A stretch of 64,000 nt of DNA from Phyllobates terribilis (taxonomy: Eukaryota): the NCBI RefSeq assembly GCF_046119375.1, contig NW_027362768.1, forward strand, positions 144,894,001 to 144,958,000, read 5' to 3'. The notes under the pieces are model-generated. The model was given only the letters and a program-made list of their open reading frames with translations, did no database searches and had not been told where the DNA came from. Each line of letters begins with the position of its first letter. Within the stretch, counting starts at the first letter, position 1. Shown here piece by piece: positions 10,201-19,200 of the stretch. A program made the position numbers and the translations under genes.

Positions 10201-13200
10201 TCCTGTCCTGCCCTGCTTCTGCCCGCTGCTCCGGCAGTCCTGTCCTGCCCTGCTCTGCCTTGTCTGCACTCTAGCTGTGCTTGCCTGTAACCCTCTGCCT
10301 GTATTGTTCCTGAGTCCCGGTGTGTACTGGGTCCTATCCCGCCTGTGTTCCTACCTGCTAGTGCCTCCCTGTCTGCACTCTAGCTGTGCTTGCCTTTACC
10401 CCCCTGCCTGCATACCCGCCTGCCTGCATACCAGTCGTGCCTGCCTATACCCACCAGTCTGTGTGCCAGCCTACCAGCCTGTTCCTGTATTCCCCTGTGT
10501 GGGTCAACAGCCGTGTCCGGGGTCTGTCCTGGAGTAGCACCTGGTCCCTCTGCTCGGTTCCTCCTTGGTGCACTGGCGTCGTATGCCGTCGTGCGACCCT
10601 GGTCGGATCGGGTGAATACTTAGTCACGCCCCTCCAGGCATTCACTCTCCGGCGCGGTCCAGTGGAATCACTACCAATCCCACGCACACGCCGCTTAGCC
10701 CGGGCGTGTGCATAACAGTATGTAGTAGTGGAATTATTGTGGAAATGTATTTACTACAGTATATGGCAGTAATGTGTGGGCTCTTTAGGAGAACAATATT
10801 TGGACACTGCATATTATTTTAAGGACTATGCAATAGTAGTAGTATGTGGGATTTTTATGGCAGTAGTATGTCAACAATTTTTAAAAATAAAGATAAATAA
10901 GGTACATTATTATAAGAAATAAAATGACAATAATGGCGGTTGTCCAGGCTTGGGCTACAAGTCTGCAGTCATTCTATATGACTGCAGACTTGTGAATCCT
11001 CACAGTATGCAGTTTGAGCACTTACAGGCTTCTCCGGTGGCATGTGATCACAAGCATGCGATTTGCATACATGTGGTCACATGCCGACTAGACGTGCACG
11101 GCCTTCCTTAATACAAGTGAATTGAGCGAGGACGGATACGTTTAGTTGGAATGTGGCCGGAAGTATGCAAATCACATACTTGCAGTCACATGACTGCCCG
11201 CTCCCAGCCATGGACAATCCTGACAGCGCGCATTGTGAGCGCTATGAGGATTTGCAAATCTGCAGTCACATAGAATGACTTCAGCGTTGAGCACCACGGC
11301 TGGACAACCCCTTTAAATGGTTACTGTTATCTCAACAAATGTTGCATAATTCAGATTTCAAGCAAGTATAAAAAAAAAAAAACCTTTTACATCTATTTTA
11401 TCAAAGAAATCTGCTTCTTAAATCCATCTTGCTCAGCTACGATGTACTGCCAGCTCACCGAGATGTCAGATTACAGCTGCTTATTGGAGGGAACTTCAGA
11501 GTGAAAAAGAGCTAGACACACACAGACCCATTCAGTTGCTTTCTAGTGAGTGTTATATCACACCCAGCGCTGAATTCACAGCTACACTGCTCAGTACTGT
11601 TGTATAATGTCCTCCATCCTGCTGCTGATTCTGAACATATGCTCTAGAGAGACAGGAGAACAGGAGTCCCTCATGTCTGTGTGTGCTGTGTATGGGATAT
11701 ATCATAGTGGCTAATCTTCACCCACTCACTCAGAGACAACTGAAAATTAGAGATGAAGTCAGCAAAGGTAAAATGGTGAATATTTACAGGGGGGAATGGG
11801 ATAGATTGCCACATAAGTAGTTGTGTTTTATAGTACAGAGCTAAGGTATTAATACTGCAGGCTTCAGAGCTGTAATTGTAGCACCCTGAGGAATCGGCTG
11901 CTACAGGGGTATTACACCTCAAGCCAGAGGTGTGGTATTCCACTCCCGGGTAAGGATGGAGTGTGGAACTGAGCTAGTTAGCTGCATACACTACATACAT
12001 CCCATTTCCGGGGGACAGATCGACGGTACTCCCACCAGTTTATGTGCAGGTACGATAGTGTCTGTCCCTGGCTGGAGTGGGAGGGGGGTGGAACATCCCA
12101 GTAGTGTAGGGGCAGATAGGGGGAGCAGTCTGGGTAAGGCTAGGAGCTCATTGGGTGCTGGTCACCTGAGCTCACACATAGAGGGAGTATATAAGGTGGG
12201 CACCATCTTAGGACAGGGTCTTTTGTAGAGTGAGTCAGTCTGTCAGAGTGTAACCTGAGGAGCAGAGCAGAGAAGCTCAGCCAGAAGGGCTGACAGGGAG
12301 TTGTGGTTCCGGCTGGGCCCAGCTCCAAGGCCAAGAGAGAGAGAGGAGTCAGAAGGACCCAGAGAGAAGGAGAAGGAACCCCAAGACCCCAGAATACAAG
12401 CAACAGGGTGAAGGGTTGGCACCTAGGGTACCGGATCCCAAGCTGGCAGAGAGAAAAGCACACCTTAGCCAGAGACCGGAGGTCGTGGGCAGGATCTGCC
12501 ACGACCCTCACCAAATCCACCAGGAAGGCAGACCAAGTATAGGGTCAGGGAACCCAGAGGAGGTGTACCCACTAAGAGACCCGAGGGAGCCGGACATAGG
12601 TGGATCCCTGGTGAGAACGGCCAGAAGAGAGGGAAAGTCAGACAGGAGCTCAGGACCACGCTCCAGAACTGCCTGGGGGTTAGCCGAGTCCAGGACCTGG
12701 TGGACGCAGCACGGCTCGGGTGGTCGCTTCAGGCCAGAGTGACCATAAGAACACCCGTAAGTAAAAACCCCTGAACTGCACAGCCCGACTCTGAGTCTTC
12801 TTGCTGATTCATCCTGCACCTTCACAACCACCATCCTCCACAACTGACCCCCTGAGGCTATACCCCTCCCGTTGGGGGTTATACTATCAGAAGCTGCACA
12901 CACACCATCAGCCTCAGCGGACCCTGCTGCAGCGGCGGCCGTATTGACCGCAAATCAACGGGTGGCGTAGTCGACACTAAAGAACATCCAGCAACATCTG
13001 TAGGACTGCCACACACTGAGCTTGACACCCTGGGCACGGACCGGGTCACCGCCACTCGGAGACTACAACCCCCATCTGATCCGGCTCCGGGTATCCCCCA
13101 AACAGCACTGGCCCAGGGGACGCGTCAACTTTGGCGTAGTCGGCAGGATTACGTGCCCGCAACAACCGGGTACTGCGTGCCTGAAGAAAAGTTCACCGTT

Positions 13201-16200: not shown

Positions 16201-19200
16201 AGGGAACCCAGAGGAGGTGTACCCACCAAGAGACCCGAGGGAGCCGGACATAGGTGGATCCCTGGTGAGAACGGCCAGAAGAGAGGGAAAGTCAGACAGG
16301 AGCTCAGGACCACGCTCCAGAACTGCCTGTGGGTTAGCCGAGTCCAGGACCTGGTGGACGCAGCACGGCTCGGGTGGTCGCTTCAGGCCAGAGTGACCAT
16401 AAGAACACCCGTAAGTAAAAACCCCTGAACTGCACAGCCCGACTCTGAGTCTTCTTGCTGATTCATCCTGCACCTTCACAACCACCATCCTCCACAACTG
16501 ACCCCCTGAGGCTATACCCCTCCCGTTGGGGGTTATACTATCAGAAGCTGCACACACACCATCAGCCTCAGCGGACCCTGCTGCAGCGGCGGCCGTATTG
16601 ACCGCAAATCAACGGGTGGCGTAGTCGACACTAAAGAACATCCAGCAACATCTGTAGGACTGCCACACACTGAGCTTGACACCCTGGGCACGGACCGGGT
16701 CACCGCCACTCGGAGACTACAACCCCCATCTGATCCGGCTCCGGGTATCCCCCAAACAGCACTGGCCCAGGGGGCGCGTCATAATCTCCCACCAACTCAA
16801 TGTTTTAGTAATTTGTGTGATCCTGCCCCAACACTGCACATCGATCCCATGCCACATGACAGTATAGGAACTCCGCTAAACTGATGTCTCTGACTGACAG
16901 CAAACTTTTTTGACTGTTTCCAGGGTCGGCCATTAGAACTGTGAGTATAATGCACCCTGCAACTCAGGATCATCACAAGATAATTAAAACTATATTTTTA
17001 CAAAGTTACTCAACTTTTTTTTAATGTAAAATACCTGAAAAAATAATAACAAAAATTGTGCGATCGCTGAAGTATAAAGAACTATTTGTCAGCGCAGTTT
17101 ATAAATTAACTGGGAAGCAAAGAATGTCTTCGGGACAAAACTGCTGATGGACGGTCTTGTTACCCTAAGACTGCAATAGAGATTTCATGCCCAATAAATT
17201 CTCTCGTCATCAAAATAAACAGCTACACCGGGCTTACAAGAGTATCTCACACACTTGTATATGACTACAGCACCTGGAGGGTTAAAATTAATAGAAAGCC
17301 AAAACCAGGTCGCCGGATATTGATCCATAGCAGAATACCTATATAGCATATCACATCCCAATGTGGAGCTTTCCTCAGTCACCTTTTCCCATTGATATTC
17401 GGTTACAGTGAATAAAAGGTACAGAGGGAAGGATTAAACTGCACAATGTTCATGTCACACTTTGTCCTCCTATGTGAGCCTTTATTGCGGAGAGTACATA
17501 GAAAAGAATTTAAAAATTGGTAATGGGTGCAAACATCAAGCTTGCTGACTGTTTCCGGAGCCCCCAATCTTCCATGCACCATTTAAAATACAAATTTTTG
17601 TCCTTTGGGTTCCCTGATGTCCTTGCAAACTCTGTAACCCCATAGCTACTATCACATTTAAAGGGAATCCGTCAGCCAGCTTTTGCTATATAATTTGAGA
17701 GCAGCATTGTGTAGGTGTAGAGACCCTGATTCCAGCGATGTGTCACTTACTGGGCTCTGTGTTGCTTTTTCAATAAAATCAGCGTTTTATCAGCAGGAGA
17801 TAATCACTACAGGACTAGGTGCCCTATGCCACCTAGTCCTTCTGCTGTGAAACCCCGCCCCCACCACTGATTGGCAGTTTTCTTTCTTTTGACAGAAAGC
17901 TGCTAGATCTGCAGCAGAGAAAACAGTGATTATATCAAAATGACAGCATGCCGACCAGTAAGTAACACATCGCTGGAATCCTGCTCTTAGATTACATAGA
18001 AAAGCCTACTGACAGATTTCATGGGATTGTTAGTCCCACTGAGGACAGAAACTAAGCCAGTATCCTATTTTCCATAAAGTCTTAAATTCTAACATTAGGA
18101 TATACAGTGGGTACGGAAAGTATTCAGACCCCTTTAAATTTTTCACTCTTTATTTCATTGCAGCCATTTGGTAAATTCTAAAAAGTTTATTTTTTTCTCA
18201 TTAAAGTACACTCTGCACCCCATCTTGACTGAAAAAAAAACAAATGTATGAGATATGCTTATTCTGTATTGTCTGTATAAGTCCCCCCTAAAATTTGTTA
18301 AGTGCTGCGGAATATGTTGGCGCTATAAAAATAAAAAAATATTATTATTATTATAAATGTAGAAAATGTTGCAAATTTATTAAAAAAGAAAAACTGAAAT
18401 ATCACATGGTCATAAGTATTCAGACCCTTTGCTCAGACACTCATATTTAAGTCACATGCTGTCCATTTCCTTGTGATCCTCCTTGAGATGGTTCTACTCC
18501 TTCATTGGAGTCCAGCTGTGTTTAATTAAACTGCTAGGACTTGATTTGGAAAGGCACACACCTGTCTATATAAGACCTCACAGCTCACAGTGCATGTCAG
18601 ACCAAATGAGAATCATGAGCTCAAAGGAACTGCCCAAGGAACTCAGAGACAGAATTGTGGCAAAGCACAGATCTGGCCAAGGTTACAAAAGAATTTCTGC
18701 ATTTCTCAAGGTTCCTAAGAGCACAGTGGCCTCCATAATCCTTAAATGGAAGAAGTTTGGGACCACCGGAAGTCTTCCTAGACCTGGCCGTCCAGCCAAA
18801 CTGAGCAATCATCTGAGAAGAGCCTTGGTGAGAGAGGTAAAGAAGAACCCCAAGATCACTGTGGCTGAGATGCAGTAGGGAGAAGGGAGAAAGTTCCACA
18901 AAGTCAACTATCACTGCAGCCCTCCACCAGTCGGGCCTTTATGGCAGAGTGGCCTGACGGAAGCCACTCCTCAGTGCAAGACATATGAAAGCCCACATAG
19001 AGTTTGCTCAAAAACACATGAAGGACTCCCAGACTAGGAGAAATAAGATTCTCTGGTCTGATAAGACAAACAGAGAATTTTTTGGTGATAATTCTAAGCG
19101 GTATGTGTGGAGAAAACCAGCCACTGCTCATCATCTGCCCAATACAATCCCAACAGTGAAACATGGTGGTGGCAGCATCATGCTATGGGGGTGTTTTTCA

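Follow-up and report, generated by a model that had tools for sequence, protein, structure and literature searches.

By what means does a retroelement without a polymerase multiply, and which task does the single protein it encodes fulfil? These questions are raised by a long terminal repeat (LTR) element at positions 11877-16781, on the plus strand, of a 64,000-nucleotide stretch of the genome of the poison frog Phyllobates terribilis (hereafter the window), which carries one open reading frame (ORF) ending in a cold-shock domain (CSD) and no pol gene. The element is a non-autonomous LTR retrotransposon that shows every testable feature of this class. It shares its priming region with a co-resident gag-pol family, and that the two stand to each other as satellite and helper can hardly be doubted.

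A pol-less family and its gag-pol partner

The signals for reverse transcription and integration are intact, as had been stated in the first-pass annotation of the window: two LTRs of 1251 bp (11877-13127 and 15531-16781) with TG..CA ends, a 19-nt primer-binding site (PBS; 13132-13150) after a 4-nt spacer, a polypurine tract (PPT; 15522-15530) and the target-site duplication (TSD) TAAT on both flanks (11873-11876 and 16782-16785). The PBS is presumably complementary to tRNA-Ser. Also in agreement with the annotation, the interior (13128-15530) contains no protease, reverse transcriptase (RT), RNase H or integrase motif, the CSD being its sole Pfam match at E up to 1. It closes with a non-coding tail (15094-15530) that ends in a family-specific 3' tag (15495-15528); an acceptor-like pyrimidine-CAG tract just 5' of the PPT (15480-15497) is kept in CSD elements. 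The first ~900 bp of the 5' LTR would represent U3-R. This LTR holds a TATA box candidate (12188-12194; the motif is present in 23 of 24 CSD LTRs) and a GTRAGTAAA motif (12757-12765), which overlaps a variant poly(A) signal, is a candidate splice donor and is found in 24/24 CSD LTRs versus 0/13 helper LTRs. Four runs covering all 30 bins gave no convincing splice joint, with contigs of uncertain kind that are neutral on expression, and folding of the U5, the leader and the 3' end was no better than that of rough shuffles (z -0.7, -0.9 and +1.5).

In the genome containing the window (G000; 10.57 Gb), the exact 19-nt PBS occurs 46,653 times (reversed control 0), and exact copies of the class-specific 3'-end tags number 27,093 (CSD class) and 31,370 (gag-pol class), against none for the controls, while a first look with PF00313 gives 33,380 candidates. 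Among 40 CSD-class tag sites sampled regardless of content, 32 hold a whole CSD, two a partial one and six none, which suggests about 21,700 CSD copies, or ~100 Mb and ~1% of the genome if full length, an estimate that derives from one region of C1 and excludes solo LTRs and diverged copies. Forty consecutive PBS sites inspected on C1 (entries 41-80 of the PBS list) comprise 14 CSD elements, 20 sites with an RT motif, four with gag/protease motifs only and two that are short or unclear; all 14 CSD elements keep a frame of at least 537 codons through the domain, which in 13 includes the conserved start. No RT motif occurs in 26 interiors (2.2-2.6 kb) of the window element's family, family A. 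Both classes are flanked by 4-bp TSDs, which in the CSD family differ in sequence between insertions. The median identity of LTR pairs is 99.6% for CSD elements (n=11) and 99.2% for RT-bearing ones (n=13); the gag-pol partner is active over the same period as the satellite. Head-to-tail arrays sharing one LTR are common in CSD families (L018/L019, L143, L180, L250, L257/L258).

The autonomous partner with pol and the shared LTR end and PBS, which had been proposed as the thing to look for, is a co-resident Ty3/Gypsy family. At least five of the 40 PBS sites carry a zinc-knuckle gag and an unbroken pol of ~1,400 codons, one example reading protease-RT-RNase H-integrase, i.e. in Gypsy order; besides the zinc knuckle, the helper Gag shows a weak PNMA match (E 4.5e-05, below the cut-off). 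Of the earlier idea of a parasitic LTR family that borrows Pol, a CSD-keeping family with a co-resident gag-pol partner is thereby established, while mobilisation in trans itself is a step that we infer.

Common to the two classes is a module of the 3' part of U5, the LTR end, the PBS and the leader (12827-13330) with 70-80% identity. A comparison in 150-bp steps finds a match to all 13 helpers only over 12777-13376, and a match to five of them over ~25 nt at the PPT; none of the 13 matches any 150-bp window from 11877-12776 or 13377-15476, that is, U3 and the ORF. Five TTCCCGCC repeats in the leader (13266-13363), matched by helper leaders too, are a candidate packaging signal. In a tree of this region (last 260 nt of the LTR, PBS, 46 nt of leader), 26 rows from CSD elements and 17 from pol elements are intermingled, with seven class changes, six of them forced by well-supported branches, and a single CSD clade is rejected (p-AU 5e-47); the U5-PBS-leader module has been exchanged between the classes at least six times. 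In this module L121 has 92% identity to a helper and 74% to the window element, L143 has 92% and 79%, and the best helper of the window element reaches 83% identity. Donation from helper to satellite would be the simple reading of the direction. In a tree of PPT and U3 the CSD rows group together, but the classes barely align there, at only ~60%, so that this tree shows only that they differ. Co-packaging followed by template switching is a described route for LTR exchange between partners (PMC6894440).

Several simpler identities were considered for the element and discarded. It is not an autonomous Ty3/Gypsy element, gag and pol being absent from it and present in the helper, nor an internal-deletion derivative of the helper, since U3 and interior are not colinear and no Gag or Pol remnant is left. 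A one-off internal deletion, which the first-pass annotation had named as a possible refutation, is likewise at odds with thousands of CSD copies and with the lack of a CSD in any frame of 33 gag-pol loci. A Gag-only pol-less class does not fit either, as the ORF has no homology with the two co-resident Gag types (hhalign probability <=0.3%), which match each other at 98.6%.

A constrained cold-shock protein and its relatives

The single open frame (12856-15093) spans 745 codons from stop to stop, 653 from the PBS and 594 from the first ATG at 13309. The latter was rejected as the family start, because the start kept across subfamilies lies at 13384, with its context retained in 22 of 26 full elements and the Met in all except L111. 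The annotated stop-free ORF of about 600-646 codons with a 440-bp tail is accordingly upheld as one frame, with a tail of 437 bp, and corrected to a protein of 569 aa (13384-15093). Across 22 natural copies (the other four full elements, with frames broken upstream, were left out), omega is 0.31 overall, 0.60-0.68 in the N-terminus and in a Pro/Ala/Thr-rich linker (13894-14412; 0.68) that includes three 72-bp repeats (14191-14406), and 0.20 in two conserved segments, one N-terminal and without recognised fold or Gag match (13699-13893), the other preceding the CSD (14413-14790) and containing a predicted 45-residue helix (about 14632-14766). The CSD itself (14791-15009) stands at 0.076, and fixing its omega at 1 costs 208 log units (2dlnL 417). 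For the helper Gag omega is 0.19 (10 copies).

Nine of the 22 copies had been fetched by CSD score, which favours conservation, and the test was therefore repeated on unselected samples of 40 gap-free CSD copies with at least 70% identity, from 80 loci in two samples. Shared variants amount there to 48 nonsynonymous (N) and 104 synonymous (S), private ones to 24 N and 17 S (Fisher p 0.002), the latter not distinguishable from neutral (p 0.09). In the N-terminal half of 28 near copies and the window element, with the truncated L011 excluded, private changes are 129 N to 75 S at a neutral synonymous share of 0.30. With shared variants constrained and private ones near neutral, the constraint acts on lineages that are still transposing: strong purifying selection maintains the CSD, and it operates on the element. 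Neutral decay of the ORF, which the first-pass annotation had named as a possible refutation, is not what the subfamilies show. Indels in multiples of three make up 50/105 in the ORF, 44/219 in the tail and 31/158 in the LTRs, in codon-blind and noisy counts from 13 pairs. It is highly probable that the protein works for the element. LARD and TRIM elements are defined by a non-coding interior, and an ORF under purifying selection removes the window element from both.

The same variants bear on whether the ORF is kept for the benefit of the frog, as a domesticated RNA-binding protein that is encoded in many copies and acts in oocytes or embryos. The zebrafish Bhikhari Gag is a precedent (PMC13269885), and a CSD cluster on C4, with three loci and a low copy number, appears sedentary, but the private variants acquired after insertion are near neutral and the constraint falls on branches producing new subfamilies, which renders a host function very improbable. 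The C4 cluster consists of three diverged CSD frames (G000:C4:791483454-791520478; L133, L151-L155, L188) with no flanking LTR pair seen, which keep the RNP2 His-Tyr and are possibly a domesticated or older form.

The CSD is recognised by PF00313 at 33.9 bits (cut-off 27, E 2.9e-08). A model of the last 200 residues (mean pLDDT 77) predicts the helix and a five-stranded barrel of pLDDT about 90 (89-96 by block) which matches CspA, YBX1 and CRHSP-24, with an rmsd of 1.8 to CspA 1mjc. With a profile built from 15 element CSDs, YBX1, the nearest solved sequence, reaches 50.5 bits, E. coli CspA 49.9 and Lin28 20-24; a viral fold library gave generic CSDs only, and the Atlas search generic CSD clusters only (<0.9). 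The RNP1 W and F and the RNP2 F are kept in 42/42 distinct family-A domains.

As to the origin of the domain, a tree of 72 columns unites families A, C, D and E in one supported clade, with B apart, and is compatible with a single capture of the CSD as well as with two. In the best tree neither the Y-box nor the CSDE1 group encloses the element CSDs, and grouping with Y-box (p 0.12), CSDE1 (0.20) or Csp (0.45) proteins is not rejected on so few columns. The first-pass suggestion of a kept or captured RNA-binding gene thus holds for a CSD gene kept across the family, and not as far as a named host donor is concerned. Host YBX genes were not recovered from the genome with P0098 as query. CSDE1-like intron-poor tandem pieces, apparently processed copies, lie at G000:C1:734437889-734449260 (L061-L066), and exon-like CSDE1 matches on C2 near 702.8 Mb. 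Such processed copies, together with YBX1 as the nearest solved sequence, speak for a one-off internal deletion of a Gypsy element or a neutral passenger from a host Y-box or CSDE1 transcript. Thousands of copies with differing TSDs, the low omega of the CSD, the excess of multiple-of-three indels in the ORF over the tail, the lack of Gag or Pol remnants and the position of the CSDs outside both host clades in the best tree make either origin extremely unlikely.

The CSD and the lack of pol recur in two further families, whose LTRs are unrelated to that of the window element and whose CSD frames are under selection. Family B is pol-less, with an LTR of ~814 bp, no blastn match to the window element, the same PBS type and 4-bp TSDs; its frame of ~670 codons with a short-loop CSD has an omega of 0.23 (16 copies) and at least 150 matches (L175-L186, L194, e.g. 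G000:C3:874407004-874417003). Family C (L189-L192, L195, L198-L200) has an LTR of ~1030 bp and an interior of ~2.6 kb, and its CSD frame reaches as many as 819 codons (omega 0.15; 10 copies). It occupies four of 20 consecutive TTACA-PBS sites, of which the genome holds 2,037. At 15 of the other 16 the frames are gag- or pol-type and belong to a second Gypsy lineage, which co-occurs with family C and has its LTR end and PBS in common with it. In short members (L132, L140, L142), which have other PBS variants and ~1.4-kb interiors, the first Met directly precedes the CSD (100-135 aa).

Beyond Phyllobates, the annotations of Ranitomeya variabilis, R. imitator and Anomaloglossus baeobatrachus contain related proteins, which are known as gene models only; every named relative of the protein is a gene model from a poison frog. 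The A. baeobatrachus protein has the helix and the CSD in common with the element protein, in a species that we take to belong to the sister family Aromobatidae. The label 'young' given to the element suits this copy, whose two LTRs differ by 4 mismatches, but not its family, which is deep and apparently extends across two frog families. A profile search of proteins found seven poison-frog proteins and two weak prokaryote-type matches, while single-sequence searches had P0001 as the sole match, which is near-identical to G000 frames and was excluded as a second species. In the search of representative proteins, 145 of the 150 matches listed are multi-CSD proteins (at least two stretches), so that single-domain relatives below 78.7 bits in other frogs or in fish could not show. 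Four poison-frog gene models (P0002, P0005, P0006, P0007) fuse the element CSD to R3HCC1-like, astacin-like and other frames and are exonisation or annotation artefacts.

How the protein may serve the element

We lean, with some reserve, towards a protein that binds its own RNA through the CSD and so raises the survival, packaging and reverse transcription of that RNA. The LTR would drive a genomic RNA serving as both message and template, and translation would begin at the ATG at 13384. The protein would coat the element RNA through the CSD and stabilise or chaperone it as a private Y-box-like factor, whereupon the coated RNA would preferentially enter helper particles, co-packaged with helper RNA, and the PBS and LTR ends common to both would be used there by helper RT and integrase. 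Co-packaging with helper RNA would also be the simplest source of the module exchanges. A comparable activity is reported for YB-1, which stabilises HIV-1 and MLV genomic RNA (PMC6040738).

Natural copies without a CSD offer a view on this proposal. The window element contains a short direct repeat in two copies (14446-14454 and 15046-15054), and three of the six CSD-less copies in the 40-tag sample lost helix and CSD via the same 9-bp direct repeat, in frame and in three backgrounds 83-87% alike. The deletion junction pattern occurs 632 times in the genome against 18,854 intact ones, a share of ~3% that is rough since the patterns searched are unequal in both length and scope. When 29 deleted and 34 intact copies are placed on a tree, 13 label changes result, ten of them forced: CSD loss recurs without taking over.

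In an alternative reading, the protein acts in trans against host silencing, by masking RNA from piRNA or decay or by titrating a Y-box/Lin28/CSDE1 pathway, to the advantage of satellite and helper alike. A shared good of that kind should let CSD-less copies take over, but they are few and polyphyletic, and 0/33 gag-pol loci took up the CSD. Although satellite and helper are both abundant and young together, CSD-less copies still insert, the same cargo is found in three LTR-unrelated families and Gypsy elements are reported to be highly expressed in the germline of another poison frog (PMC6278860), action in trans is considered unlikely.

The remodelled CSD surface and the two conserved segments outside the CSD, which like the long predicted helix could be contact surfaces, could instead belong to a competition factor that binds the shared U5-leader or the helper Gag and diverts particles to satellite RNA. 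Phage satellites divert helper particles in this manner, and the element keeps its own U3 and ORF, yet tracks the helper subfamilies exactly in the priming and leader region. A helper as numerous and as young as its satellite speaks against such diversion, as do the short members L132, L140 and L142, which are reduced to little beyond the CSD, and competition appears slightly less plausible still than action in trans.

Protection of the element's own RNA is the reading favoured here, and a number of observations weigh against it. Both expression and RNA binding are predictions from sequence, and the start codon follows a leader of >1 kb with upstream ATGs. The N-terminal Trp of the CSD is replaced by K/R in 41/42 domains (Trp kept in 1/42) and the RNP2 His by T/N in 40/42 (His kept in 1/42), the next residue being mostly Arg; with three canonical RNA-contact positions altered, the ligand may differ. 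Copies lacking the CSD do insert, with young LTRs and, in some, TSDs. Clustering among the deleted copies exceeds that of shuffled labels, small all-deleted groups exist and 21 of 29 deleted copies are nearer to another deleted copy than to a sampled intact one, so that some spread without the CSD is possible; the low CSD-less share may equally reflect a low deletion rate and not a penalty in cis. Finally, no partner sharing sequence with family B was found among the 33 gag-pol loci.

Known systems and significance

Further features were noted in the window. A DIRS-like retroelement (34267-39209, minus strand) with overlapping long frames has RVT_1 by Pfam and, judging by its motif, presumably a recombinase-like frame. 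Tc1-type transposon copies lie at 20526-22305, 56183-57877 and 49054-49767, the first two 96% alike and in opposite orientation. Host frames are a single 472-aa class II tRNA synthetase (59252-60670, plus strand), which we take to be prolyl-type, and a Menorin-domain exon (551-1261, minus strand).

Pol-less LTR elements and CSD capture are known separately, and we found no report of their combination; the literature searched, with Repbase, Dfam, GyDB and most subscription journals outside its scope, contained no pol-less CSD LTR family. The first-pass annotation knew of no described vertebrate LTR family with a CSD, but 46 bird endogenous retroviruses (ERVs) carry one (PMC12287698). These captured the domain more than once, which their authors read as possibly adaptive, and like the window family they have PF00313 inside vertebrate LTR elements, but they are classed by their RT and the position of the domain varies (PMC12287698), whereas the window family has no RT, a Gypsy-type partner and the CSD protein as its whole cargo. 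The Xenopus elements 1a11, xretpos(L) and lambda-olt 2-1 (PMC4585706) are likewise frog LTR elements without pol, and 1a11 codes for one protein of similar size, 71 kDa. That protein is described as Gag-like, occurs in 20-30 ORF copies and belongs to elements thought immobile by the authors (PMC4585706); the window family, compared with 1a11 by description only, has no Gag match, a CSD end, ~20,000 copies and many near-identical LTRs.

The zebrafish BHIKHARI-1/-2 are active vertebrate LTR families with a functional coded protein and host roles, but this protein is Gag, the families are of the ERV class and no CSD is mentioned for them (PMC13269885). YB-1 combines an Ala/Pro-rich part, the CSD and a charged tail (PMC6040738). 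With Y-box proteins (YBX1, YBX2) and CspA the element shares the CSD fold and RNP1; it differs in ~30-37% CSD identity, an altered RNP2, a long N-terminal extension and its place outside the Y-box clade. A paper on a Styela CSP proved unrelated (PMC7540406). The helper, not the window element, resembles PNMA-Gag-like Ty3/Gypsy elements of fish and frogs. This lineage presumably goes by the name Barthez. In soybean, autonomous-nonautonomous LTR pairs with LTR swapping were reportedly described by Du et al. in 2010. There, too, partners swap LTR parts, but the window family carries a selected non-Gag protein and exchanges the U5-PBS-leader only.

The usual view of non-autonomous LTR elements is that of passive carriers of cis signals. 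A non-Gag protein constrained more tightly than the helper Gag points to an undescribed step in the retrotransposon cycle that an RNA-binding parasite can win, and thousands of natural copies, recurrent CSD-less variants and helper exchanges make cis or trans action and co-evolution testable from sequence. The family further accounts for the stray gene models labelled 'CSD domain-containing' in annotated poison-frog genomes. Recent Ty3 activity is reported to track genome size in the group (PMC12822217), and counts based on Pol would miss the CSD family, at an estimated 1% or so of the genome. As a broader picture, put forward tentatively, poison frogs would harbour an old class of protein-coding satellite retrotransposons, in several families with unrelated LTRs, which dropped gag and pol, re-acquire the priming-leader module from active Gypsy elements and win particles or outlast silencing with a CSD factor of their own. 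If true, eukaryotes would have in them a counterpart of phage satellites, and the giant genomes of frogs a driver that has gone unrecognised.

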